From Candidatus Acetothermia bacterium (GTDB lineage Bacteria > Bipolaricaulota > Bipolaricaulia > M55B111): 12,353 nucleotides of DNA. This document shows positions 139 to 12,342 of the stretch, piece by piece. The stretch spans positions 1-12,353 of the forward strand of contig JBKGZT010000038.1 of the NCBI GenBank assembly GCA_046543235.1, written 5' to 3'. Within the stretch, counting starts at the first letter, position 1. Each line of letters begins with the position of its first letter. The notes beneath the pieces are model-generated. The model saw only the letters and a list, made by a program, of their open reading frames with translations. It made no database searches and was not told the origin of the DNA. A program made the translations under genes and the position numbers.

Positions 139-753
139 CTACTCGCCTTCCCCTTCCTCTATCACCGTCAGTTCCCGACGGCACTCCGGACAGAGAATCC
201 TGATCCTATCGCTTCTGTGGCTCGGGCGCTCCTTTAACCTATCCCGGCGGGCGAGGTCGAGGTTTTCCAGGTAGGTCAGGAAAATACCCGGATTCGAGTA
301 AGCAACGTTTCCCAGCTTGTCGTACAGCCAGAGCAGGTGATCCCTGGTTCCGACTACTTCTCCACAGGCGTCACAAATTACCAGGTCCTTCTCGGTTTCG
401 GACCTCGGGCCCTCGTCCCCGCTAAACGACAGGGCGTATTCCCGCGAGAGCTCTATTCCTTCCCCCGTGGTACAGAACTTCTCGCACTGCCCACAGTAAA
501 TACATTCCTCCAGGTGGACGCTGAGCTTTCTCTCACCGCCAGCTCCATCCACCGAATCGTCCAGATGAATGGCATCCGCCGGACAGACGTGGTAGCAGCC
601 GCTACAGCCGACGCAACCGTCGGGCTGGTATTCCGGCGCTCCGCGGAAAGACGATGCCAGGTCGGCCTCCTCCTCCGGAAACCTGGAAGTAAACCTCCCT
701 GAAAATACGGCCCTTACTGCTTCTGCCAGCTCCCGGACCTTCGGTTTCTTCAT
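139..753 (-). CDS. NuoI/MbhN/HycF-like 2x[4Fe-4S] ferredoxin-like subunit of a group 4 hydrogenase, with an extra C-terminal CxxC...CxxC site
   Basis: 204 aa. It has an N-terminal FTSRFP...FRGAP signature, CVGCSGCYHVCP and CIYCGQCEKFCT motifs, and later CDAC and CPEC. The ATG overlaps the mnhG stop (ATGA), with SD GAGGAGG upstream. Confidence 0.9.
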   Translation of the reverse strand: MKKPKVRELAEAVRAVFSGRFTSRFPEEEADLASSFRGAPEYQPDGCVGCSGCYHVCPADAIHLDDSVDGAGGERKLSVHLEECIYCGQCEKFCTTGEGIELSREYALSFSGDEGPRSETEKDLVICDACGEVVGTRDHLLWLYDKLGNVAYSNPGIFLTYLENLDLARRDRLKERPSHRSDRIRILCPECRRELTVIEEGEGE

Positions 754-1076
754 GACTTATCCTCCTCGTATTTGTCGACCAGACTTCCTTCCCAGAGAGG
801 TATTCCGGATTCGTGGGCTCCGCGCGAAAGGGCGTGTGCCGCCGTAGGTGCAGTAATGACTATGAAGAGAATCGCGGCCAGAGCCTTCAAACCGGTGGGA
901 CTAACCCCTGAACTGATTAGGACGCCCAGGAGAATTGAACAGGTTCCCAGGGTAACGCATTTTGTAGCCCCCTGAAGCCTGTTATATACGTCTGGTAGCC
1001 TTATCAGGCCGATACAGCCGAACAAATTGAACAAAGTTCCGATGACTACTATCGCTTTTCCGGCTAGTTCACTCAT
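750..1076 (-). CDS. mnhG: Mrp/Mnh Na+/H+ antiporter subunit G (MbhC-like)
   Basis: GLIRLPDVYNRLQGATKCVTLG and TAPTAAHALSR are MnhG signatures. Start moved from 1106 to the ATG at 1076 (MSELAG...), which has GGAGGG upstream and overlaps the mnhF stop; 108 aa. Confidence 0.92.
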   Translation of the reverse strand: MSELAGKAIVVIGTLFNLFGCIGLIRLPDVYNRLQGATKCVTLGTCSILLGVLISSGVSPTGLKALAAILFIVITAPTAAHALSRGAHESGIPLWEGSLVDKYEEDKS

Positions 1077-1326
1077 CGAATTTCTTACCCTCCAGGTGTT
1101 TGGCAAGAGCAGTAGTGCCGATAAAACTCAACAACCCCCATGCCAGTGCGATGTTGAGGTAAAACGCCCTTTCAGTAATGAGCGTTAGAAGACCACAGAA
1201 TCCCACCACTAAAATACCCAGTATGTCTATTCCAACCATTCTATCGGCGGGGGTCGGCCCCGAACCTATCCTGTAAAGGCAGAGAAACGCGGATAAGGTC
1301 AGTAAACCGAGGCTGAAACTTATCAT
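1069..1326 (-). CDS. mnhF: Mrp/Mnh antiporter subunit F (MbhB-like)
   Basis: 85 aa hydrophobic protein with the YRIGSGPTPADRMVGID motif (GPtxxDR) and FIGTTALAKHL. ATGA overlap with mnhE; SD GGGGAGG. Confidence 0.92.
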   Translation of the reverse strand: MISFSLGLLTLSAFLCLYRIGSGPTPADRMVGIDILGILVVGFCGLLTLITERAFYLNIALAWGLLSFIGTTALAKHLEGKKFDE

Positions 1327-1859
1327 TCGAATATCCTCCCCAGTAACGGTTCGAACCTGCCCACGATTTCGCGGGTTGAAGCTTCGACGTCCGTGGAACT
1401 GATGTTAATCCAGTGGACGTAGAGATAGCCGTCTTCGGAGATATCGACTGTCATCGTCCCCGGAGTCAAGGTAATCGAATTCGCCAGCGCCGTTCTGGCC
1501 GAGTCGCTTTCCAGATCAGTTTCGACCTTTACTATACCCGGGTTAATCGGCACGTCCGGGTGCAAAACCCGGAAAGCGACGTCAAAATTGGCCACCACTA
1601 CCCACCAGGCAAGAACGAAGACGTAACAGCCGGCCCAAAAATATCGAACCAAGTTCAACCCTTTTCCGGGGTGCTCGGTCGCCAAACCTTCCAGGAGTAC
1701 TCCGGACAGGCCGGCAACAACGGCTCCAGCAACTACCATTGGCCAGCTCACGGGGCCGAAAGGCCAGGTAAATAAAAGCCAGACCCCAAAGGTCAACGAG
1801 AAGACGAAGAGAATTCTGGAAAACTTCGTATTCTTTCCAGCTTTTTCCACTGTAATCAC
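1323..1859 (-). CDS. mnhE: Mrp/Mnh antiporter subunit E (MbhA-like)
   Basis: PGIVKV...LANSITLTPGTMTVD...LYVHWI is the MnhE signature. The GTG start at 1859 lies 4 nt after the mnhD stop and has a weak SD, so the exact start is uncertain. Confidence 0.9.
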   Translation of the reverse strand: MITVEKAGKNTKFSRILFVFSLTFGVWLLFTWPFGPVSWPMVVAGAVVAGLSGVLLEGLATEHPGKGLNLVRYFWAGCYVFVLAWWVVVANFDVAFRVLHPDVPINPGIVKVETDLESDSARTALANSITLTPGTMTVDISEDGYLYVHWINISSTDVEASTREIVGRFEPLLGRIFE

Positions 1860-1863
1860 CCAA

Positions 1864-3369
1864 TTATAAGCCCAGGACCAGTTCCGTATATCGGGTACCT
1901 TCCTGTAAAGCCGTGGCGGCCGGCTTTAATACTATCCCCCGAATTTCAGGCAGATATAGCAACCCAAGACCGACACAGCAGATAGCCAAAATTACCAGCG
2001 GGATGTACAATCCGGGAGAAATCGTCCCGGATAGCCCGGCCTCGTCGGTAATCTCACCCAGAAATAGCTCCTTTTGAACTTTGAGATAATAGGCAAGGGT
2101 GACCGCGCTTGTAATCAGGACGATCCCGGCCAGGGCGTACATTTCACCCCAGATAGCCGCTATGACTATTACCAGCTTGCTCCAGAATCCGTTAAATGGA
2201 GGAATCCCCGATATCGATAGCGTACCTATTGTTCCTGTCGCGCCGGAAACGGGACTAACCCGGGTTATCCCACCGATTTCCCTCAGATCCCTCGTCCCGT
2301 AAAGCTTTTCAACGCCACCGCTAAACAGGAACAACAGGGATTTGTAAGTTGCGTGGTTGACCAGATGAAATATCCCGCCTATCAGTGCCAGAGTCGCTAT
2401 AGCCGGTTTATCTTGAGCAATCAGGGTTCCACCCATGCCGAGCCCAAGCGTGATATAACCCATCTGAGAGACGCTTGAATAAGCCAGCAACCTCTTGAGG
2501 TCCTTCTGCCCCAGCGCGATCATACCCCCGATAAACATCGACCCCGCCCCGATCCAGGTCAATATCCCCGGTGCCAGCTCCGGCAGATTGAGACCGTTAA
2601 ACAACAATCTCGCCAGGGCGTAGATACCGAGGACCTTTATCAGCACCCCTGACAGCATGGCTGAAATCGGCGTCGGGGCTGAAGAATGAGCATCCGGCAA
2701 CCACGAGTGGAACGGAACGAACGCAGCTTTGAGACCGAAGCCGACGATAAACAGGGCGGTACTGAGGAAGATAAAGGACTCCTGCTCCAGCTCGCTCACC
2801 CTGACGGAGATATCCGCGATGTTGAGCGAGCCGACCGAACCGTAGAGCAACGCTATACCCAGCAATATGAATATAGACCCCACGGCTCCCATAACGAGGT
2901 ACTTGAAGGAGGCCTCTATCTCCTCCGGGCCTCGATTGAACCCGACGAGCGCGTAGGAGCTTATCGCGGCGACTTCGAGGTAGACGTACATGTTGAAGAC
3001 GTCCCCGGTGAGCGCTACACCGTAGATTCCGGCCAGCATTAGCGAAAACAACCCGTAGAACTTACCCTGGTTTTCGTACTCGCTCATGTAGGTGAAAGAA
3101 AACAGGGCAGTTACGAGAGCTATCGCGCTTATCACTACCAGCAACAACGAGCTAAGACCGTCCAGGACGTAATTGATCCCTACCGGGGGAGGCCAGCCGG
3201 CCAACCTGTAGATCCCCCGATCACCGAATTTTACCAGGGAAAGCGCAAGCAAGAACCCGGTTTGAAGGATCATGGCCCCGGCAAATAACCTGGTCCGCTC
3301 CTTAAATTTTTCTATCAGCGGCAACAGAAAACCGATACCCAGCGGTACTGCCACGAACAATGGGAGCAT
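1864..3369 (-). CDS. mnhD: Mrp/Mnh antiporter subunit D (MbhH/NuoN-like proton-translocating subunit)
   Basis: 501 aa polytopic protein with GDVFNMYVYLEV (TM5 Glu), GLKAAFVPFHSWLPDAH, SAMLSGVLIKV, DLKRLLAYSS, NHATYKSLLF and GIPPFNGFWSK. SD GAGGGGG. Confidence 0.92.
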   Translation of the reverse strand: MLPLFVAVPLGIGFLLPLIEKFKERTRLFAGAMILQTGFLLALSLVKFGDRGIYRLAGWPPPVGINYVLDGLSSLLLVVISAIALVTALFSFTYMSEYENQGKFYGLFSLMLAGIYGVALTGDVFNMYVYLEVAAISSYALVGFNRGPEEIEASFKYLVMGAVGSIFILLGIALLYGSVGSLNIADISVRVSELEQESFIFLSTALFIVGFGLKAAFVPFHSWLPDAHSSAPTPISAMLSGVLIKVLGIYALARLLFNGLNLPELAPGILTWIGAGSMFIGGMIALGQKDLKRLLAYSSVSQMGYITLGLGMGGTLIAQDKPAIATLALIGGIFHLVNHATYKSLLFLFSGGVEKLYGTRDLREIGGITRVSPVSGATGTIGTLSISGIPPFNGFWSKLVIVIAAIWGEMYALAGIVLITSAVTLAYYLKVQKELFLGEITDEAGLSGTISPGLYIPLVILAICCVGLGLLYLPEIRGIVLKPAATALQEGTRYTELVLGL

Positions 3370-3375
3370 TCTTTA

Positions 3376-3726
3376 TTACCCCCTCAACTTCCGTATTTCC
3401 GTGATGTCGAAGGTTCCGTAGTGCTGGTATAACCTTACGGCCAGAGCAACCATCAGTGCCACGACGCCCAGGCTAATTACTATCGAAGTAATTACCAGTG
3501 CTTGAGGCAGGGGATCCACGGCAGTACTCAAGAACTCCTGAACCGATGCCTCTTCCGAGATAATCGGTGCCTCTCCCGACATCCTGTACCCGATCAGGAT
3601 AAGAAAGGCGTTCACGGCGTGCTCCATGATGATTATACCCATGATTATCTTAATCAAGTTCCTCTTGTTTATGACGCTGTAAAGCCCGACGGCAAACAGG
3701 ATAAACGCAAGCAGATAGGTAAACAT
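3376..3726 (-). CDS. mnhC: Mrp/Mnh antiporter subunit C (MbhG/NuoK-like)
   Basis: KRNLIKIIMG and DPLPQALVITSIVI signatures. Start moved from 3804 to the ATG at 3726 (MFTYLL...), 1 nt after the mnhB stop with SD GAGGAGG; 116 aa. Confidence 0.93.
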   Translation of the reverse strand: MFTYLLAFILFAVGLYSVINKRNLIKIIMGIIIMEHAVNAFLILIGYRMSGEAPIISEEASVQEFLSTAVDPLPQALVITSIVISLGVVALMVALAVRLYQHYGTFDITEIRKLRG

Positions 3727-3727
3727 C

Positions 3728-4171
3728 TCAATCCTCCTCGATAGCCCGGAACGTAGCGAGAAAGGCAAAAACCATGAAGATCGAGCCGCCGACCTTGAAC
3801 CCAATTGCGAGGTTGATTATCGGCATGTTGCCACCGCTCAACAGGCCAAACGGTTCTCCCGGAAATCCCGACTGAATAAAATTACTCAGGAAGGCTCCGC
3901 CGAAGACGTAACCAAGAAATCCCATGCAGAGAAACGAGAGAGAGGCAAGGCTATCCGTTATTTCGGCAGCCCCGGTATCAAAAACCCCGTCCACCTTCTC
4001 CTTCCCAAACGCCAGGGTAAGCAGAATAAAGCAACCGGCGATGATCACGCCACCGGGAAAGCCTCCACCCGGAGTCAGATGCCCGGTCAGAGCTATATAG
4101 ATCCCGAAGGCGATTATAAACGGAGCGACCCAGCGGGTAACCGTCTTTACGATCTTGCTCATTCCGCTCAT
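3728..4171 (-). CDS. mnhB: MnhB-domain antiporter subunit (MbhF-like)
   Basis: 147 aa with GHLTPGGGFPGGVI and a C-terminal NLAIGFKVG, both typical of MnhB. SD GGGGAGGAG. Confidence 0.9.
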   Translation of the reverse strand: MSGMSKIVKTVTRWVAPFIIAFGIYIALTGHLTPGGGFPGGVIIAGCFILLTLAFGKEKVDGVFDTGAAEITDSLASLSFLCMGFLGYVFGGAFLSNFIQSGFPGEPFGLLSGGNMPIINLAIGFKVGGSIFMVFAFLATFRAIEED

Positions 4172-4173
4172 CT

Positions 4174-4716
4174 TTACTCCTCCCCTTCGTAGAAAACTTC
4201 CTTCCGCAGCAGCGTGATAGCACCGAGAATAGCGGCAAAGAGCACTGTCGCCTCACCCAGCGTATCGTAGGCCCGGAAGTCCATCAGGATGTCGTTAACT
4301 ATGTTCGAGCCGCCGGCCGCATCCAGTCCGGATTCCAGGTAAAACCCACTGGCCGTTTCGGAAAAGGTATCCATGGCGGCTTCGCCGAACTCGGGAAAAA
4401 CGCTGAGGTAATTGGCGAAAAAGGCCGAACCGAGACCAAATAGAACCAGACTTCCAATTAACATCGGCTTGCCCTCGTTTCCCCTGATTTCCGTTACGCC
4501 TTTACCGATCGTGGCCCTGATAAGAATTACCAGCGTCAAGATCTCTACTACTACCTGAGTAATGGCGATATCCGGAGCTCCCAGCCAGAGAAAAGCGATA
4601 CTCAGCCCAAAACCCACCGCTCCAAGGGAAATTATGGAAGAAAGCGTGGAAGGAGCCTCTACGGCAATCAGAGCGGCAATTATCGTAAAGACCAGAAAGA
4701 CCTGAATGAGAACCAT
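4174..4716 (-). CDS. DUF4040 / MbhD+MbhE-like membrane subunit (corresponds to the C-terminal part of MrpA)
   Basis: 180 aa. LGAPDIAITQVVVE (MbhD/DUF4040) is followed by GGSNIVNDILMDFRAYDTLGEATVLF (the MbhE/MrpA 'NxVnxIlxDfRxxDTxxE' motif). Confidence 0.88.
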   Translation of the reverse strand: MVLIQVFLVFTIIAALIAVEAPSTLSSIISLGAVGFGLSIAFLWLGAPDIAITQVVVEILTLVILIRATIGKGVTEIRGNEGKPMLIGSLVLFGLGSAFFANYLSVFPEFGEAAMDTFSETASGFYLESGLDAAGGSNIVNDILMDFRAYDTLGEATVLFAAILGAITLLRKEVFYEGEE

Positions 4717-4729
4717 CCTACCAACCCCG

Positions 4730-6601
4730 TTATTGAGTAGTTAGAAGCCAGAGTACTACGATCAGACCGGCAAACACCCACACCAGATAACGCGAGAGCA
4801 ACCCGTTATGCGCTCGGCGTAACGACCTGGTAAAAGCCTTCCCCACCCAGTTAGTGACCACGTAGGGATCGATGAACTTACGCTCTTCCGCGACGTAGAT
4901 CCAGTTGACCAGCCTCGAATTCCTCACGCTTTTATATATCTCGGAAGGGTTTGCGCCAAAATCCAGGTCCTCGAGATAGGGGAAGTACTTGTCCCTGTCG
5001 ATCGTTTCCGCGTTCTCGCCTCCGAGAAAAGCCGGCTTCCTGCTGGACCGCTTTTTAAGGCCGAAGAGGGCATATATAGCAACCCCAACTACTATAGCAC
5101 CAATCAGGAAAGCCGCAGCCATGTAGCCGACCCACGTACCCGTGAATAGAGGTATCCCACCTAAAATCGGCCTGACTGTATCCAGCAACAGGCGCGGGTA
5201 TACGCCGAGGCCGATGCATAGTAGGGCAGGCACAGCCACGGCCGTCTTCATCCACCCATCGGGATACCTCTTCACCTCGCTCTCTTTCTCTCCAAAAAAA
5301 GCCGAAAACAGGAACTTCGAAATGTAGATAACCGACAGCGTACTACCGAACAATGCCGCCACCAGAATAAACGGGGCAAAGTTTCGCTCGAATCCGATGG
5401 AAGCCTGGTACAGCACCCACTTGGAGTAAAACCCGTTTAGCGGCGGAACTCCCGCAAGGGAGAGCGCACCGACCGAGGTCGAGGCAAATACCAGAGGTAA
5501 TTCCTTACCCAGGCCTCCCATCTCGTCCAGTTTCCTGGTACCCGTGACGTAGACGACTATTCCCGCCCCAAAGAAGAGCAACCCCTTGAAGAGGGCGTGG
5601 TTAATCAGGTGAATCACCCCTCCGGCTATTCCCAGGCCGGTGCCAATACCTATTCCTACCATGATATAGCCTACCTGCGATATGCTGGAATAGGCAATCA
5701 GCCGTTTTAGATCGTTCTGAACTATCGCCAGCAGTCCACCGATCACGATCGTAAAGGCCCCTATTACTGCCAGCGCGCTGCCCCAGGCAGGGGAAGTCTC
5801 GAACAATTCCCAGAAGATCCTGAGGATCCAGAACAGGCCGACCTTTATCATAATCCCGGAAAGGAGGGCGGAAATCGGAGAAGGGGCCTCCGGGTGGGCA
5901 TCGGGCAGCCAGGAGTGAATCGGGAAGAATGCCCCCTTTACGCCGAAACCGAGCAGGAACAGTGCCAGGATCGCAAGTCCCGTCCCGGAACCGGCAGGGT
6001 TGATCCCCTGGAGGCCGCTCAACTGGGTCGTCCCCAGAGTTACCCAGGCCAGCACGATCCCCGCGAGAATCGCCAGGGCGCCGATCTCGCTCATCAGGAA
6101 GTACTTGTTACCAGCTTTGACGGAGTTCGGGGTCCGTTCGAAGGTAATGAGAAAGTACGCCGCGAGGGTCATTAACTCCCAGAAGACGAACATCGTAAAG
6201 AGCTCCGTAGCCATCACTGCCCCGATCATCCCACCCATGAAACCCAGGAGAAGCCCGTAATACTTGTTCTCGTTCGTCGGTTCCTCGTACCTCTCCAGAT
6301 ACCTCATCGAGAAGGCCGAGGCGAGAAAACAGAACAGCGAGATCAACGAAACCATTAGAAGAGACAGGGGGCCAAGCCCAAACGAAATTACGATTCCACC
6401 GACTTCCTTGCTGAAAAACTCCAGGCTACCGGATTGAACGGCGGGGAAGAAGGAAAGGGAGAAACCGAAAACCCCCAGAGTCACCACCGAGGGAATGATA
6501 TTCCGTAACTTCTGACTTACTCTGCCCGCTATCCAGGCCACGGGACCACCTACCAGAGGAAAGAAGAGCAGTCCCAGGCCGTAAACCCCTATTTCACTCA
6601 T
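4730..6601 (-). CDS. Large antiporter-like proton-translocating subunit (HyfB/NuoL/MrpA-MrpD family) with a NuoL-like C-terminal extension
   Basis: 623 aa with FVFWELMT, GVKGAFFPIHSWLPDAHPEAPSPISALLSGIMIKVG, DLKRLIAYSSISQ, NHALFKGLLF and GVPPLNGFYSKW. It ends in AHNGLLSRYLVW plus a hydrophobic helix. SD GGAGGAGGT. Confidence 0.9.
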   Translation of the reverse strand: MSEIGVYGLGLLFFPLVGGPVAWIAGRVSQKLRNIIPSVVTLGVFGFSLSFFPAVQSGSLEFFSKEVGGIVISFGLGPLSLLMVSLISLFCFLASAFSMRYLERYEEPTNENKYYGLLLGFMGGMIGAVMATELFTMFVFWELMTLAAYFLITFERTPNSVKAGNKYFLMSEIGALAILAGIVLAWVTLGTTQLSGLQGINPAGSGTGLAILALFLLGFGVKGAFFPIHSWLPDAHPEAPSPISALLSGIMIKVGLFWILRIFWELFETSPAWGSALAVIGAFTIVIGGLLAIVQNDLKRLIAYSSISQVGYIMVGIGIGTGLGIAGGVIHLINHALFKGLLFFGAGIVVYVTGTRKLDEMGGLGKELPLVFASTSVGALSLAGVPPLNGFYSKWVLYQASIGFERNFAPFILVAALFGSTLSVIYISKFLFSAFFGEKESEVKRYPDGWMKTAVAVPALLCIGLGVYPRLLLDTVRPILGGIPLFTGTWVGYMAAAFLIGAIVVGVAIYALFGLKKRSSRKPAFLGGENAETIDRDKYFPYLEDLDFGANPSEIYKSVRNSRLVNWIYVAEERKFIDPYVVTNWVGKAFTRSLRRAHNGLLSRYLVWVFAGLIVVLWLLTTQ

Positions 6602-7793
6602 CTAGGACCTCCTCCAGTGGACTTTTCTTCAGCCCTAGCTCCTCCTTTAACTCCTCCGTTTTTTCGTGACTTGCTTTCATCAGGTCGACCCCTTTCCTTC
6701 CCTTCAGACTGATGGCCCGTTCCGTGCAGCTATAACAGGGATCGACGGAAGCCAGAATAATCGTGGCATCGGCCACCGTCTCGCCTATACACGTCGCCTT
6801 GTACGTCGGGAAATTCATAAAGGTAGGAGCGCGAATTTTGTGACGAACCGGCCTGTTCGTTCCGTCGCTCTCTACGTAGTGGAAGCATTCCCCTCGAGGG
6901 GCTTCGTAGTTCCCTATACCCTCTCCCGGCGGTACCTTCTCCGGTTCGGAATCGATTGGACCGTCTTCGGGGATTTCTTCGATAACCTGCTCCACCATCT
7001 TTATCGATTCCAGGGTTTCCAGCAGCCGGACCTCCACCCTCGCCAGGACGTCACCTGCCTCCCGGGTAATCACGTTCCAGTCCAGATCATCGTATACGCC
7101 GTACGGATAATCGGTTCTGACGTCTATAGGGATTCCCGAGGCCCGGACCGTCGGACCCAGCGCACCGTAGGCACGGGCATCTTCCTCGGCCAGTATCCCC
7201 ACTCCCTCGAGCCGGGCCTTCATGACCGGGTCGTCCAGCACGGCGTCGTACAGCATCTCCGACTTTTCCTTCAGGGTGTCCAGAGTTGGTTTCACTTCTT
7301 CCAGTTGCCCCGGGTCGATTTCCCTCTGAACGCCACCCGGCTTCATCATAGCGTAGGCGTTTCTGTTCCCCGTAAGGGTTTCCAGGATATCAAGCACGTC
7401 CTCTCGATACTTCCAGGCCCACATAAACACGGTATCGTAGCCGATAAAGTGTCCGGCCAGACCGGCCCAGAGAAGGTGAGAATGAATCCTCTCCAGTTCA
7501 CCGATCAGCGTCCTTATGTATTTGGCTCTTTCCGGGACCTCTATACCTCCGCAGTCTTCGACGGCCAGACAGTAAGCGTAAGGGTGAGAATGAGAACATA
7601 TCCCACAGACACGTTCTACGAGGAAGGGAACCTGGTTGAACGTCTTCTTCTCGGATAGCTTTTCTATTCCCCGGTGGTTATAGCCAATCTGGACGTCCAC
7701 GTCCAGCACTTCCTCTTCTTCAACCGTCAGGAGATAATGCTCGGGTTCCTCCTGCAAAGGATGGTACGGTCCGATGGGTACGGTAGTAGCCAT
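6594..7793 (-). CDS. Group 4 [NiFe]-hydrogenase large (catalytic) subunit, MbhL/EchE/NuoD-like
   Basis: Contains IGPYHPLQEEP, GYNHRGIEK, the L1 motif ERVCGICSHSH (RVCGIC at 7596-7613), ELERIHSHL, EAPRGE and the L2 motif DPCYSCTER (6717-6743), followed by a 40-aa tail. The ATG at 7793 is preferred over the GTG at 7802 because GGAGG directly abuts that GTG. Confidence 0.95.
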   Translation of the reverse strand: MATTVPIGPYHPLQEEPEHYLLTVEEEEVLDVDVQIGYNHRGIEKLSEKKTFNQVPFLVERVCGICSHSHPYAYCLAVEDCGGIEVPERAKYIRTLIGELERIHSHLLWAGLAGHFIGYDTVFMWAWKYREDVLDILETLTGNRNAYAMMKPGGVQREIDPGQLEEVKPTLDTLKEKSEMLYDAVLDDPVMKARLEGVGILAEEDARAYGALGPTVRASGIPIDVRTDYPYGVYDDLDWNVITREAGDVLARVEVRLLETLESIKMVEQVIEEIPEDGPIDSEPEKVPPGEGIGNYEAPRGECFHYVESDGTNRPVRHKIRAPTFMNFPTYKATCIGETVADATIILASVDPCYSCTERAISLKGRKGVDLMKASHEKTEELKEELGLKKSPLEEVLDE

Positions 7794-7794
7794 A

Positions 7795-8253
7795 TCATTC
7801 ACCCTCCAGGTCCTCTACCTCGAAGTCCTTTCGGTAAGGAAAGTCATTGTCCCCGACCGATTCCGCCTTGAGCAACCTTTTTTGAGCCGGATGGTTCTCG
7901 AACTCGATCCCGAACATCTCCCGTACTTCCCGCTCTATCCACTCCGCCCCCGGTATGGTTTTCGCTATGCTCTCCGTTGAAGGCTCCTCGTCTTTCTCCA
8001 CGGGAAGCTTAACCGTAACCATTACCCCCCGCTCGTCAAGGGAAAAATGGTAGAGGAGCTTGAATTCTTCCTCTTCATCCTTACAAGTTATCGTGGCCAG
8101 CCTGCCGCCCTTCTCCTCTAACAGGAACTCGACAAGTTTTTCGAATATCTCCGGTTCCGGGCTGATGTAAAGCCTCCTACGGCCCTTGTTCGCCTTACCG
8201 AGTTTCCAACCAAACCTGCCCCTCAGCTCCTCTTCGAATTCGGCAGAATTCAT
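7795..8253 (-). CDS. NuoC/MbhK-like (complex I 30 kDa family) hydrogenase subunit
   Basis: RLATITC, LLYHF and SIAKTIPGAEWIEREVREMFGIEFENHP...RLL match the NuoC signature. Start moved from 8325 to the ATG at 8253 (MNSAEF...), which gives an ATGA overlap with the upstream stop; 152 aa. Confidence 0.9.
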   Translation of the reverse strand: MNSAEFEEELRGRFGWKLGKANKGRRRLYISPEPEIFEKLVEFLLEEKGGRLATITCKDEEEEFKLLYHFSLDERGVMVTVKLPVEKDEEPSTESIAKTIPGAEWIEREVREMFGIEFENHPAQKRLLKAESVGDNDFPYRKDFEVEDLEGE

Positions 8254-8696
8254 ACTCCCACTTCCCTGAGTCGATCGAGACCGGCATCCAGTCCCTCGAT
8301 TATCGCCTCCGGTCGAGGGGGGCAACCCGGGATGTTTACCACGGTCAAGTCCTCGTCGACGTCCCCGATCACTTCCCTAACCGGACCGACGCAGTTGTAG
8401 GCATCGTAAAATATCCCCTTCGAACAGGCGCACGTCCCCACGGCCGCGACGATAAACGGTCTGGCCGAAGCTTCGAGGATCCTCTCAAAACGCGGTTTCG
8501 ACTTTCTGGTAATCGGACCGGTAACCATCAGCACGTCGGCGTGTCTCGGCGAGCCGACGAGTTTTCCGCCGACCCGCTCGACGTCGAACTTCGGAGTCAG
8601 GCAATCGACTATCTCTATGTCACAGTTGTTACAGGAACCCGTATTTACGTGATAGAGCCAGGGAGACTTGCTTATCCCCCAACTTTTCCAGTTCAT
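8250..8696 (-). CDS. Group 4 hydrogenase small subunit, NuoB/MbhJ-like, with one proximal [4Fe-4S] cluster
   Basis: 148 aa with GSCNNCDIE, SPRHADVLMVTG, VGTCA and IPGCPPRPEAI. The CxxC spacing is hydrogenase-type, not the tandem CC of complex I NuoB. SD GGAGGT. Confidence 0.94.
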   Translation of the reverse strand: MNWKSWGISKSPWLYHVNTGSCNNCDIEIVDCLTPKFDVERVGGKLVGSPRHADVLMVTGPITRKSKPRFERILEASARPFIVAAVGTCACSKGIFYDAYNCVGPVREVIGDVDEDLTVVNIPGCPPRPEAIIEGLDAGLDRLREVGV

Positions 8697-8714
8697 TGAA
8701 CCGATACCTCCGTA

Positions 8715-9647
8715 TTATAACCAGCCTATCCCGATTAGGTCTCCGGTTATCGCCAGAACCAGCCCCAGCAGGGCAAGGGGAGCGGCACCGTACCAGAAAA
8801 ACCGAAGGGCCTGGTCCGACCTCAACCTCGGATTCGTGTTCTTGATTAGGATTACAGCCACCAGGACGAGGACGTATTTTAGTCCTCCCCACAACGCGCC
8901 CCAGCCACCGCCGAAACCACCGAGAAATACGGTGACCAAAAACAGCGGCAGGACCAGAAGCGCCATTAGATGAGAGATCTTAAATAAACCGAGAAGCGGC
9001 CCGGAATACTCGATCAGCGGACCGCCCATTAACTCCGTTTCGGCTTCCGGCGTATCGAAAGGAACGAACCCGAGCTCGGCCTGGATGCAAAATAACGCCG
9101 CGACAAAAGCGAGCGCCCCGGAAACGCTCGCGACGATCGGTTTCCCGGTAAACGCAACCAGCTTCAGCCCTCCGCCGGTCCTTACTATTGCCGCCGTGAC
9201 GGCTAGCAGCAGGGGCAATTCGTAGGAAACTATCAACCTCAACTCGCGGTTGGATCCCATGCTAGAGAGGGGGTTCCCGGAAGACATCCCGCCCAAAACG
9301 ACCGAGAGAGCGGGTAATACGAGCAAATACAGCACGACTATTACGTCTCCCAGAAAGGAAGTTCCCGGGTAGTTTGCCTTTACCAGGATTATCGAAGCAA
9401 GCAACAGCCCGGCCGGCCCGAGCAGGGGGACGAGCAGATAACTCCACTCCGTGCTTTCCTCCGGAATTATATTCTCCTTCCCGAACAGCTTCGCGATATC
9501 GTAGACGGGCTGCAGCAAAGGAGGGCCAACTCGCCACTGTACAAGAGCGGAGACCTTTCTAACCAGCCAGGAAGCCAGAATTCCCGCCGCGAGGGTAAAC
9601 AAAAGCCCGGGAAAGACGAAAAAATCGAAGACCAAACCTCCTACCAT
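8715..9647 (-). CDS. NuoH/MbhM/HycD-like membrane anchor subunit
   Basis: 310 aa with RKVSALVQWRVGPPLLQPVYDIAKLFGKE, SYE, PFDTPEAETELMGGPLIEYSG and PRLRSDQ. TAATG overlap with the upstream gene. Confidence 0.94.
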   Translation of the reverse strand: MVGGLVFDFFVFPGLLFTLAAGILASWLVRKVSALVQWRVGPPLLQPVYDIAKLFGKENIIPEESTEWSYLLVPLLGPAGLLLASIILVKANYPGTSFLGDVIVVLYLLVLPALSVVLGGMSSGNPLSSMGSNRELRLIVSYELPLLLAVTAAIVRTGGGLKLVAFTGKPIVASVSGALAFVAALFCIQAELGFVPFDTPEAETELMGGPLIEYSGPLLGLFKISHLMALLVLPLFLVTVFLGGFGGGWGALWGGLKYVLVLVAVILIKNTNPRLRSDQALRFFWYGAAPLALLGLVLAITGDLIGIGWL

Positions 9648-10189
9648 TACTTACCCCCTTTACGACCCAGGGTTTTCGGCTGCCAGCCACTGACATGAAC
9701 CATGAGCCCATCCCTCAACTCGTGCCAGTCCTCCCCTTTCGGCTCGTGTCCCGCCGGTACCAGCTTGAGCCCGTCGTGAGGGCAGGTGGAGACGCAGGAA
9801 GGTTCCCCTTCCCTTCCTTCGCATAGGTCACAGCTTGAATCCAGGAAGGGAATGAAGTCCGTGTAAATCGTCCCGAACGGACAGGCCATAACGCAGGAAT
9901 CACAGCCGATACAGAGCAGGTTCGCCCGCTCCACCAGACCTTCGTCGTTCTTCTCCAGCGCATCGACAGGACAGGCCCTCAGGCATGCCTGGTCCTCGCA
10001 TTCCCGGCAGTAATGAGCAAAAGTAGCCTGCTCCCTTAAATCCAGGACTCCGTTATTCCCCGGATGGGCCTGATTATCACATTGGACCTCGCAGCTCTCG
10101 CAATCGAACCCGTCGCAGACGTCCAGATCCAACAACAGGGTCCCGTCCTTCGTGGTCGCCGTTTTCCCGTCAGTTTTCATTCCGATCAC
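9647..10189 (-). CDS. Multi-[4Fe-4S] electron-transfer protein (HycB/CooF/DmsB-like polyferredoxin)
   Basis: Four Cys groups: CDGFDCESCEVQC, CRECEDQACLRACP, CIGCDSCVMACP and CDLC...PSCVSTCP. The start is either GTG 10189 (GTGA overlap) or ATG 10180. Confidence 0.88.
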   Translation of the reverse strand: MIGMKTDGKTATTKDGTLLLDLDVCDGFDCESCEVQCDNQAHPGNNGVLDLREQATFAHYCRECEDQACLRACPVDALEKNDEGLVERANLLCIGCDSCVMACPFGTIYTDFIPFLDSSCDLCEGREGEPSCVSTCPHDGLKLVPAGHEPKGEDWHELRDGLMVHVSGWQPKTLGRKGGK

Positions 10190-11040
10190 TCCCAGAGATC
10201 CGGAATACCTTTGACCTGGTCATAGGTAAATACCGGACCGTCCTTACAGACGTAGTACTGACCGAGCTGACAGTGTCCGCACATACCAATCCCGCAACTC
10301 ATGTTCTTCTCCAGGGAGAGATAGATGTCCTCGGGCTCGAAGTGATCCAGCAGGGTTTGGGCCGTAAACTTCATCATGATCGGAGGGCCACATACCACGG
10401 CCACCCCTTCTTCCGTATCTATATCCGGGTCGTCCAGCAAGGTGGTCACGACCCCTTCGTTTCCCTCCCAGTCCTCGTCGGCCTCGTCGACGGTCAGCTC
10501 CAGTTCTATCTCCGAGCCAGAATCCCAGCTATCCAGCTGGTCCTTGTAAATCAGGTATTCCGGCGTGTTGGCGCCGTATTTCAGGCTTATCCGTCCGAAT
10601 TCGGAGGAGTTATCGGTCAGTGCGTAAAGCAGTGACCTCAGAGGGGCTAGACCGACTCCCCCGCCGACCACCAGGACGTCCCGCCCCCGCATCTCGTCCA
10701 GGGGATAACCCTCTCCGTAAGGCCCTCTAATTCCCAAAGTTTCTCCGGGGGAGGTCCGGTGTAACCTTCCGGTGACCTCACCGGCCTCCATGATCGTGAT
10801 CTCCATTTTCTCGGCTACTGCAGGAGAGGAAGAAGGGGTAAAAGGAGCTTCCCCCAGGCCGGGCACGGACAACTGGACGAATTCCCCGGTTGCGAACTCG
10901 ATCGGCCTCTCCGGAACCAGCTCAAAGGTCTTTATATTGGGGCATTCCTCTTTGATATCAGTTATTTCCGCCGGAACCGAGCTATAGGGGTTTTCCAGCT
11001 CTTCGAGCTCCTCCTCTTCTAACTCAACTCGCGTTTGCAA
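10186..11040 (-). CDS. FAD/NAD(P)-binding oxidoreductase with a C-terminal [2Fe-2S] site (AsrB / sulfhydrogenase HydG / PyrK / FlxA family)
   Basis: 284 aa with GEFVQLSVPGLGEAPF, RGPYG, GGGVGLAPLRS, VCGPPIMM and MSCGIGMCGHC...VCKDGPVF. TTG start with GGAGGT 5 nt upstream. Confidence 0.92.
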   Translation of the reverse strand: MQTRVELEEEELEELENPYSSVPAEITDIKEECPNIKTFELVPERPIEFATGEFVQLSVPGLGEAPFTPSSSPAVAEKMEITIMEAGEVTGRLHRTSPGETLGIRGPYGEGYPLDEMRGRDVLVVGGGVGLAPLRSLLYALTDNSSEFGRISLKYGANTPEYLIYKDQLDSWDSGSEIELELTVDEADEDWEGNEGVVTTLLDDPDIDTEEGVAVVCGPPIMMKFTAQTLLDHFEPEDIYLSLEKNMSCGIGMCGHCQLGQYYVCKDGPVFTYDQVKGIPDLWE

Positions 11041-12058
11041 TTGAGACCTCCTTCAAAACGTCCCGCATATCTATCTCGCCCATGCAGCCGTCAATACACC
11101 TTCCACAACCCGTACAACCGTAGATATCGTGGTTCTCCGGTATTCGGCCGAACTTGTCGTAAAACCGGTTTCGGACGCGGCTCTCCAGAGATTCCATTGG
11201 GTTTGCCCCGCCAGCCACTCGGCTGAAACCCTCGAAGTTACAGCTATCCCAAACTTTATTACGACTTACGCTGCCCTCTTCACGCTGCTCGTAGAGCTGA
11301 AAACAATGACAGGTGGGACAGGATAGGTTACAGGCACCGCATTCGACGCAGTCTTCGGCAAATTGCCCCCAGAGGGGGTCGTCCGCCGGAAGGGCGGAGA
11401 GGTCCTCCGGCACTTCGAAATCACTGTTGTTTTTCTCCAGCTCCTTCTCCAGGGATTCCCTGAACGTCCGCCGTCTCTCCAGCATCTCCTCCGATGCCGG
11501 CGCGAAGAGATCAGAATTCTCCTCGTAGACTTCCTGCCCGCGGAGGGAATCCGAATTGACCTCGACGAGCAAGTCGTCGAGATCGGGGAGTTTCGTGACG
11601 TTCAAATCGAAGCCCTCCTCCGGATAAGGTCGGCTCTCGACCTTATTACAGAAACAGGTGTCGGAAGCTTCGTAGCAGTCACTTGAGATCAACAGGGTGT
11701 CGTGGCGCCTGAACGCGTAATACGGGTCGATTACCTCTTCCCCGAGAAATACGTTATCGAGCACCCGGAGCGAACCCAGATCGCAGGATTTGACCCCGAA
11801 GATGGCCTGCTTTCTTCTCTCCGGGCCCTTCTCCCCTTCGGGAAACTCCGCTACCTCTTCTTTTGGAGGAGTAAAAAAGACTTTCGGAGGCGTCGGTAGC
11901 CTGTTTTTCGGGAAGTGAACAGGAGAATCTCCCAACTCACTCCATTTGGTGTAAGAGATTTCGCCATGGGATTCGACGGGGACGAAAAGGTCCCTGCCGG
12001 AGGCGACGTTATCCAGGAGGGTAAGAAAGTTCTCCTCCGAGAGGCGATAGAGATCCAT
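11024..12058 (-). CDS. 4Fe-4S dicluster protein of the AsrA / sulfhydrogenase HydB (beta) / FlxCD family
   Basis: Contains FGVKSCDL, C...TCFC, CVECGACNLSCPTCHC, WDSC, RVRNRFYDKF and GCTGCGRCIDGC. Start moved from 12091 to the ATG at 12058 (MDLYRL...), preceded by AAGGGAGGTATT; 344 aa. Confidence 0.9.
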   Translation of the reverse strand: MDLYRLSEENFLTLLDNVASGRDLFVPVESHGEISYTKWSELGDSPVHFPKNRLPTPPKVFFTPPKEEVAEFPEGEKGPERRKQAIFGVKSCDLGSLRVLDNVFLGEEVIDPYYAFRRHDTLLISSDCYEASDTCFCNKVESRPYPEEGFDLNVTKLPDLDDLLVEVNSDSLRGQEVYEENSDLFAPASEEMLERRRTFRESLEKELEKNNSDFEVPEDLSALPADDPLWGQFAEDCVECGACNLSCPTCHCFQLYEQREEGSVSRNKVWDSCNFEGFSRVAGGANPMESLESRVRNRFYDKFGRIPENHDIYGCTGCGRCIDGCMGEIDMRDVLKEVSIANAS

Positions 12059-12308
12059 AATACCTCCCTTAAATTGGTGGTAATGCCGCAAAAGTTTCTG
12101 CCGGAAGCCAGTAATCGTCCTTTAAGACAGCTTGACTTCGAAGCTACTTGGCCCTAGTTTTCGGAGCCCGCTGCCATTTATTTTTCCCGCTAGTACTCTG
12201 CAGGTAAATCGGTCAAGGACTTATCCATTCCCGGTGAGCCACTTCAGGGAGGTATCATTTACGTCGGCTCAAGAGTGAGAAAAGTTGCGTGAATATGATC
12301 CTTTTCAC
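12056..12308 (-). promoter_or_regulatory. Long (~250 nt) structured 5' leader; candidate translational attenuator or riboswitch-like element
   Basis: It lies between the promoter and the first ATG. A perfect 10-bp inverted repeat (12060-12069 with 12246-12255) covers the SD, and several local hairpins were found by eye. No known RNA family was recognised. Confidence 0.45.
12062..12070 (-). promoter_or_regulatory. Shine-Dalgarno site of the first operon gene
   Basis: The minus strand reads AAGGGAGGT-ATT-ATG, with the ATG at 12058. Confidence 0.8.
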
Positions 12309-12314: not shown

Positions 12315-12342
12315 ATTATACATACATCTAACACTTTGTCAA
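12315..12342 (-). promoter_or_regulatory. Sigma70/SigA-type promoter, TTGACA-N16-TATAAT
   Basis: Plus-strand tgtcaa at 12337-12342 is the -35 TTGACA and attata at 12315-12320 is the -10 TATAAT, with a 16-nt spacer. It sits in the AT-rich end of the window and points into the operon. Confidence 0.85.

Follow-up and report, generated by a model that had tools for sequence, protein, structure and literature searches.

A conserved upstream anti-Shine-Dalgarno sequence predicted to close the leader of a [NiFe] hydrogenase operon in one uncultured bacterial genus

The 12,353-nucleotide (nt) stretch of DNA analysed here, referred to as the window, is one whole contig (JBKGZT010000038.1; C40 in our numbering) of a 1.32-Mb, 97-contig, 87% complete metagenome-assembled genome of a Candidatus Acetothermia bacterium, and it carries the operon of a predicted Mrp-linked [NiFe] hydrogenase. 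In the leader of this operon, predicted to be about 250 nt long, an anti-Shine-Dalgarno (anti-SD) sequence is complementary to the SD and start codon of the first gene, gene 1. We read the leader as a default-closed, long-range, SD-sequestering leader that has been selected as such and that would act in cis as a translational lock, a reading to which we give a probability of about two in three (0.68). Two properties to be expected of such a leader are present: the complementarity covers the SD and start codon, and it is kept in 14 of 14 leaders from the genus. Given that the two segments are genuinely complementary, that a conserved promoter stands upstream of them and that none of these leaders has lost the match, sequestration of the SD is very likely to be a selected function, as far as sequence comparison can tell. 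Coordinates of all features are collected in Table 1.

The pairing within the window is essentially as the original prediction had drawn it. The anti-SD, which we take to resemble the 3' end of 16S rRNA, forms 13 contiguous base pairs (12258-12246 with 12069-12057), 12 of them Watson-Crick and one G-U (G12256-U12059), and the helix takes in the SD and spacer as well as the AU of the start codon. The inward extension that had also been claimed is there as well, with a mismatch (G12245/A12070) followed by four pairs, one of them G-U, between 12244-12241 and 12071-12074. What had earlier been described as a gap in this extension is corrected here to a bulged A12075 on the SD side, after which the extension continues with G12240-G12239 opposite C12076-C12077. 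RNAduplex recovers the 13 bp, the mismatch and the four further pairs at -22.6 kcal/mol. The leader sequence was identical across four DNA runs, with no variants; among the runs listed as containing it, none was of RNA. Also present is the proposed local hairpin (12271-12263 with 12242-12235), which has eight pairs, a bulged G12265 and a 20-nt loop (12262-12243) holding the anti-SD, and its 3' arm does overlap the inward extension of the long-range helix. As a competitor of that helix the hairpin fared less well among relatives: judged by eye, a similar stem of 4-8 bp occurs in the lineage of the window and G014 and in most leaders of the G001 type, but it is weak or absent in other lineages.

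Relatives of the window carry the main evidence. The family comprises 19 genomes, with 14 other genomes in the genus and 4 in two sister genera, and orthologues of gene 1 (62-86% identity) were found in 12 of the 14 and in 1 of the 4. Fourteen leaders were compared, drawn from the window itself, 11 full genus relatives, one incomplete relative (G002) and two loci from a metagenome scan. Complementarity to the SD proved to be kept across these relatives, as the original prediction would have it, since the ribosome-binding site (RBS) had the same block as its best partner in every one of the 12 genus orthologues and in the 2 metagenome leaders. The anti-SD core lies 172-224 nt before the SD (distances from 12 leaders), and a CCUCC-type block occurs exactly once per leader in the 12 leaders counted. 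Duplex energies range from -22 to -31 kcal/mol in 13 leaders, with one at -17.9, against -12 to -17 kcal/mol for shuffled leaders; the observed energy was reached by 0-5 of 200 shuffles in the 13 leaders and by 13 of 200 in the remaining one.

Alignment of the leaders singles out the same helix. RNAalifold, applied to 12 leaders, returned two features only, the long-range helix and P0, a block at the predicted transcription start that is taken up below. Across the 14-sequence alignment 85.6% of helix cells were paired, compared with 42-51% when the partner strand was slid by 1-3 columns, and the observed count is if anything lowered by the row of G008, which is misaligned by one column. The mean majority fraction was 0.90 in the anti-SD core and 0.92 in the SD/RBS, compared with 0.58-0.63 in the flanking leader. 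Within 12 leaders one position of the helix is CG in five, UG in two and UA in one, and another is UA in eight and AU in one. The flanks of the helix change together in G013, G012 and G011, the three most divergent leaders: CCUCCCGCU stands opposite AGCG(C)GGAGG in the first two, and CCUCUCAAGG opposite UCUUGGGAGG in the third.

The leader is present in one copy in its own genome at E <= 0.001, and a model of the first 82 leader positions gave one strong match per genome in 12 genus genomes. A mobile repeat (miniature inverted-repeat or palindrome-associated transposable element, MITE/PATE) or a mobile insertion as the source of the fold was rejected on the grounds that the element is single-copy per genome. 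Weak matches of the model in other families (G127, G102, G068, G080 and G107) were traced to coding sequence or to an SD of the opposite strand. Wider scans used the 20-nt start element on genome contigs and the start element plus CCTCC on metagenome contigs, with 80 loci fetched for each; among the matches listed, the true leaders numbered one in the genome scan and two in the metagenome scan, and most others lay in coding sequence. As a side observation, a conserved N-terminal coding motif (...EYNPFH...) fits the 20-nt start-element pattern on its reverse strand, as seen at loci L078, L087, L094, L116, L135, L137, L138 and many of L182-L261, many of them on Firmicutes and gut-metagenome contigs. 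No conserved neighbour that might be a divergent regulator gene was seen among 10 relatives, whose upstream open reading frames (ORFs) differ, no family search having been made on those ORFs.

Within the genome itself, the duplex energy of -22.6 kcal/mol was attained by none of 200 dinucleotide shuffles of the leader. When the RBS was compared with the 250 nt upstream, none of 632 control starts (crude SD-bearing ORF starts of the same genome) showed more than 10 Watson-Crick pairs in an ungapped helix, whereas the window leader has 12. The minimum free energy (MFE) structure of the whole leader includes the long-range helix, and opening the RBS there costs 15.1 kcal/mol. Across all 14 leaders, the core pairing had a partition-function probability of between 0.79 and 1.0 at 37, 50, 60 and 70 C, and forcing the RBS open cost 11.7-18.4 kcal/mol.

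In the model that emerges, the leader would fold into a long stem with interruptions and a hairpin at its side, the anti-SD:SD helix closing the whole. An inner helix, UUUACAGU / ACUGUAAA, is conserved in 9 of 14 leaders with lineage-specific extensions, and the leader of the window has an inner helix of different sequence. The outer helix gains a second segment in several lineages, for example UACGUGG / CCGCGUA in the G001 group, and a lineage-specific hairpin stands just before the SD. The apical part of the enclosed domain varies by tens of nucleotides. Outside P0, the anti-SD and the SD there are 4 invariant and 5 near-invariant columns, together with large insertions and deletions. When leaders are folded to just before the SD, the anti-SD is predicted to be free in a loop in the leader of the window, to pair with a downstream GGGA in the G001 group, and to pair with P0 in the G003 group.

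For the lock to work, the two strands would have to share a transcript, and the promoter suggests that they do. The promoter at 12342-12315 matches the sigma-70 consensus at 12 of 12 positions, with a 16-nt spacer, and the same promoter is found in 13 of 13 related leaders with upstream sequence, the 14th ending at a contig end. Because this consensus promoter is conserved upstream of both, the anti-SD and SD strands probably lie on one transcript, whose start would be near 12308, give or take a few bases, as judged from promoter geometry. Four leaders were scanned for an internal sigma-70 site able to give a translatable short form, and none was found. One match in the G001 leader (L033 2531-2560, minus strand; TTGACG-18-TATCAT, 10 of 12) overlaps the spacer between SD and AUG, so that its start would be intragenic; it is probably due to chance.

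Several observations weigh against this interpretation and should be considered together. Strict covariation is weak, with 2 of 13 pairs changed on both sides, a count matched by 54 of 500 shuffles, and a covariation score matched by 23 of 500; this would be expected, as the SD strand is constrained by the ribosome anyway. The 14 leaders come from one genus and about five sub-lineages, and are hence not independent. The one sister-genus orthologue (G017) has an unrelated leader; an anti-SD match of 10 bp does occur there, 232 nt upstream, but 74 of 200 shuffles did as well. Controls based on energy are unremarkable: 62 of the 632 control starts have an equal or lower duplex energy, 5 of 110 controls reach an opening cost of at least 15.1 kcal/mol (control mean 8.9, standard deviation 3.3), and the whole-leader z-score is -2.0, with 8 of 200 shuffles folding as well. 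The single-genome case therefore rests on the length of the perfect helix and not on energy. The transcription start is placed by promoter geometry only. A conserved opener, or a common alternative partner for the anti-SD, was not found among the leaders, the predicted partners differing by lineage. Finally, it would be odd for an energy-conserving complex to have its main operon behind an RBS that never opens.

Taking these together, the following sequence of events may be proposed for a closed leader of this kind. The anti-SD, some 50 nt into a transcript with a leader of about 250 nt, would pair, about 180 nt downstream, with the start codon of gene 1 and its SD, closing a long irregular stem around a variable structured domain. 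This closed form would be the ground state and would block binding of the 30S subunit to gene 1, and the overlapping starts and stops of the operon would pass the lowered translation on to the next genes; the closed form would probably also shorten the life of the mRNA. As the lock would sit below both a consensus sigma-70 promoter and the operator-like P0, expression would need two permissions. Translational repression by the pairing is what the modelled structure leads us to infer, and so is the way the lock opens, which would be a trans-acting event rather than the binding of a small ligand. One option is a protein or RNA that captures the anti-SD exposed in the loop; another is a cut in the long stem, RNase III being present in the lineage, followed by degradation of the anti-SD fragment. 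Opening based on CsrA or Hfq is unlikely, because neither was found in the 19 family genomes: CsrA gave 0 of 19, in a search that did detect the control genomes, and no Hfq exceeded the cut-off in any of the 19, with two weak sub-threshold matches.

Among other explanations, the one that survives best is that the helix never switches, and serves as a constitutive damper that fixes a low rate of initiation on a very strong promoter, or else shapes mRNA stability. Such a role would account for the predicted closed state, which all 14 leaders share at every temperature tested, and for the failure of the CsrA, Hfq and alternative-partner searches to turn up an opener. A weaker SD would, however, serve the same end at no cost, whereas here a near-perfect extended SD and its anti-SD are both kept, and we consider a pure damper unlikely.

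Slightly behind it stands activation by processing, in which RNase III or another endonuclease cuts the stem, the anti-SD fragment is degraded and the RBS is set free, or in which cleavage triggers decay. The RNase III-dependent translation of adhE in Escherichia coli may be counted as a precedent. In several leaders the helix and its extensions together amount to about 17-20 bp, and RNase III was found in 13 of 19 family genomes and 10 of 14 genus genomes, which makes cleavage of the long stem feasible; decay upon cleavage has a precedent in icaR of Staphylococcus aureus, in the part of that study drawn on here (PMC3868564). Yet RNase III was not found in the window's own genome, which is 87% complete, and the RBS would itself be harmed if the cut fell within the SD helix, so that processing as the main function also seems to us improbable.

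The original prediction leaned towards a ligand-sensing switch, with Na+, Ni2+, NAD(H) and pH as speculative candidate signals, and this part of it found no support: there is no Rfam match, the enclosed domain is variable, the alternative partner depends on lineage, and the closed form is favoured by the 11.7-18.4 kcal/mol given above. In such a riboswitch the enclosed domain would be an aptamer, and a small molecule or ion would decide whether the helix forms. The architecture is indeed riboswitch-like in that the closing helix contains the SD, the inner helix of 9 leaders together with the lineage-specific hairpin before the SD suggests a three-way junction, and a short GGGA-type motif follows the anti-SD in most leaders, judged by eye. 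Against this, the whole window gave no match at the gathering threshold when searched against Rfam (release 15); the leader's one match, at E = 8.3, scored 15.5 bits against a gathering score of 56. A search with the 14 related loci gave three matches (E 0.23-0.55), all to eukaryotic families and below gathering, so that even permissive E-values brought no family match for window or loci. With few conserved columns in the domain (4 invariant and 5 near-invariant, amid large indels) and no conserved alternative fold found in the leaders, and with the closed form favoured by about 14 kcal/mol, which is beyond most ligands unless control is kinetic, we regard a ligand riboswitch as doubtful. A small-molecule switch is thus possible but unsupported, general architecture being the one positive point in its favour. 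The wider idea of a new class of RNA switch, with a closing helix opened by a metabolite, an ion or a dedicated protein that reads the redox or ion state, is less doubtful than a plain aptamer while still unlikely. If it were true, an uncultured halophilic lineage would control a NAD(P)H-linked, ion-pumping [NiFe] hydrogenase post-transcriptionally, besides using an operator at the transcription start.

The remaining explanations fare worse. Under isoform control the long transcript would be silent, and a regulated promoter between anti-SD and SD would yield a short translatable mRNA, as is described for sigma-A and sigma-B isoforms in the portion of a Bacillus subtilis study considered here (PMC8208050). 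A scan limited to sigma-70-type sites found no usable internal site in the window, and the internal matches of relatives are poor or start inside the coding region, which leaves this arrangement very unlikely. Control by a leader peptide, in which a ribosome on a mini-ORF over the anti-SD would keep it off the SD, draws on an in-frame AUG or UUG followed by AU(A/G) CCU CCC in 7 of 14 leaders. The other 7 lack a start in frame, and in 3 of them no ORF of any frame overlaps; the peptides vary in both length and sequence, and inspection by eye of the 16 nt upstream of the starts showed no SD-like sequence. A conserved short ORF with its own start and SD, the hallmark of a leader-peptide attenuator, was thus not found in these leaders, and we think such control highly improbable. 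Least credible of all are chance complementarity, suggested by the unremarkable energy-only controls but at odds with a pairing whose position and sequence are kept in all 14 leaders, and an RNA thermometer, since the pairing probability does not fall below 0.79 at any temperature tested up to 70 C and no melting was predicted at 37-70 C in any of the 14. A terminator-type attenuator was likewise rejected, with no intrinsic terminators in the window and one weak site in three relatives scanned.

The P0 element (GTGAA-N10-TTCAC) deserves separate consideration, as it has the highest mean majority fraction of the aligned leaders (0.94). It begins 4-8 nt after the -10 hexamer, and exactly 4 nt after it in 6 of 13 leaders; where the distance is 4 nt, its left arm may not be transcribed. 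P0 also stands behind the same promoter type in the sister-genus genomes G018 (C163, about 2901-2972) and G015 (C111, about 36630-36664), where it precedes a differently ordered Mrp/Mbh operon whose first gene is MnhE-like, and where no CCUCC-type anti-SD block is present. In these two the right arm reads TGCAC, which breaks the RNA stem. Because it lies close to the -10 hexamer, recurs where the anti-SD block is missing and has an arm that breaks the stem, P0 is probably a putative DNA operator for a repressor rather than an RNA hairpin, and independent of the anti-SD lock. The idea that its centre, AAGGGAU, mimics an SD and competes for the anti-SD was set aside: such pairing is predicted only in G003-type leaders, and as a general mechanism it is further weakened by the lack of joint change between the two sequences and by a left arm that is perhaps untranscribed.

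The half-sites of P0 call to mind those of the redox repressor Rex, whose operator consensus is given as TTGTGAA-W4-TTCACAA, also as N4, in the part of the source used here (PMC2883068). Both comprise GTGAA and TTCAC half-sites overlapping the start of a redox operon, but the perfect halves are 10 apart in P0 and 4 apart in the Rex operator as so described. Two Rex homologues are encoded in the genome of the window (G000; contig C16, around 2624-2770, and contig C4, around 11234-11374), and in the sister genus the left half of the element is a perfect TTGTGAA. By reading of the sequence, the P0 half-site at a spacing of 4 matches at 4 of 7 positions, and 12308-12289 did not qualify as a Rex operator, the N4 version leaving 2 mismatches in 12. 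Canonical N4 Rex-like sites were found elsewhere in the same genome. An exact GTGAA-N4-TTCAC core was noted upstream of a gene-1 paralogue (C22, about 11351), and a near-site, TGTGAACATGTTTACT, with TTTAC as its right half, upstream of another (C64, about 6467). P0 would probably be described best as a pair of Rex-like half-sites at the wrong spacing, forming the operator of some repressor.

All real genes of the window lie on the minus strand in one 16-gene operon. Following gene 1, genes 2-16 encode a ShyC/AsrB-like FAD/NAD subunit, a ferredoxin, NuoH/B/C-like subunits and a NuoD/[NiFe] large subunit, and further on MrpA/D-like antiporter subunits, MbhD/E, MnhB/E/F/G and a NuoI-like ferredoxin. 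Both cysteine pairs are kept in the large subunit (NuoD-like; 6594-7802, minus strand), CGIC close to its N-terminal end and CYSC close to its C-terminal end; because both metal-site pairs are kept, the complex, judged by its sequence, is a true [NiFe] hydrogenase and not a sulfane- or quinone-reducing derivative. The description of this as an energy-converting operon is borne out by the encoded subunits, which correspond to a Mrp-linked group-4 [NiFe] hydrogenase with a NAD(P)H-type input module. The joining of a [NiFe] module and ShyB/ShyC-like NAD(P)H subunits in one operon is an observation of its own. An 80-amino-acid ORF on the plus strand (11915-12157) runs antisense to the leader and to the beginning of gene 1 and is presumably spurious. 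The IVYWREL fraction of 0.431 would put optimal growth at about 69 C; the DNA occurs in hypersaline lake and microbial mat runs, and the estimate is probably skewed by salt adaptation.

Table 1. Positions of the leader elements and genes in the window
Feature	Position	Strand	Remark
-35 hexamer TTGACA	12337..12342	minus	from promoter scan
-10 hexamer TATAAT	12315..12320	minus	from promoter scan
P0, GTGAA-N10-TTCAC, at the predicted transcription start	12289..12308	minus	best conserved block of the leader
Local hairpin, 5' arm UGAGCCGAC	12263..12271	minus	pairs with 12242-12235; G12265 bulged
Anti-SD AUGAUACCUCCCU	12246..12258	minus	pairs with 12069-12057
Mini-ORF AUG AUA CCU CCC UGA (MIPP-stop)	12244-12258	minus	overlaps the anti-SD
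Local hairpin, 3' arm (12242-12235), and extension strand (12244-12239)	12235..12244	minus	the two overlap
Enclosed structured domain (modelled)	12078..12234	minus	variable between lineages
Partner of the inward extension, CCAAUUU	12071..12077	minus	
SD, spacer and AU of AUG, AGGGAGGUAUUAU	12057..12069	minus	start codon 12058-12056
Gene 1, ShyB/HydB/AsrA-like iron-sulfur subunit, 344 aa	11024..12058	minus	
Genes 2-16	139..11040	minus	several starts overlap the preceding stop

The control of a gene by a distant anti-SD that hides its RBS is a known type, and the example put forward here is confined to one uncultured genus, so that its practical value is modest. Its interest lies in an anti-SD kept genus-wide before a large energy-conserving hydrogenase operon, though such sequences are, according to recent work, normally selected against. 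It offers a natural and testable case of long-range RBS control outside model organisms, and a candidate structured leader that is absent from RNA family libraries. Should there be a specific opener, this hydrogenase class would gain its first described post-transcriptional regulator, as far as a literature search that was not exhaustive can say.

Translational riboswitches resemble the leader in placing the SD in a helix that closes a structured domain, and differ in that the leader has no family match and its domain is poorly conserved and variable in length. The rpoS leader of E. coli has an inhibitory stem that is opened by small RNAs with Hfq. Like it, the leader studied here would fold back on its RBS and be closed by default, and a trans-acting opener of the upstream strand is proposed for it; unlike it, the leader belongs to a family in which 19 of 19 genomes have no Hfq above the cut-off.

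Closer in design is icaR of S. aureus, where, in the part of the report available to us, UCCCCUG in the distant 3' untranslated region (UTR) base-pairs with the SD, keeps ribosomes away and brings in RNase III (PMC3868564). In both cases the partner of the SD is a pyrimidine-rich anti-SD lying far off on the same mRNA, and the leader may be likened to icaR in the consequences, which are blocked ribosome access and a double-stranded target for RNase III in icaR and are predicted ones in the leader. The differences are that the anti-SD of the leader is upstream, about 180 nt before the SD in the 5' leader and not in a 3' UTR, and that its helix is longer (13 bp plus extensions) and known from sequence alone. 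For B. subtilis, the portion of a further study used here describes anti-SD-like 8-mers, hundreds of nucleotides from an RBS, that pair with it, block initiation and speed decay, and adds that anti-SD-like sequences are depleted from genes (PMC12697547); it would follow that one which is conserved is likely to be kept for a purpose. In the same organism the RBS is sequestered in long sigma-A mRNA isoforms, in the excerpt consulted (PMC8208050). These cases share with the leader a long-range intramolecular pairing of the RBS that represses translation, predicted in the leader, but as described there relief comes from an internal promoter, none of which was found in the leaders scanned, and the anti-SD of the leader is conserved rather than avoided. 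From these systems the leader differs by the position of its anti-SD upstream, in the 5' leader, by the exposure of that anti-SD in a loop in some lineages and by its conservation throughout a genus.

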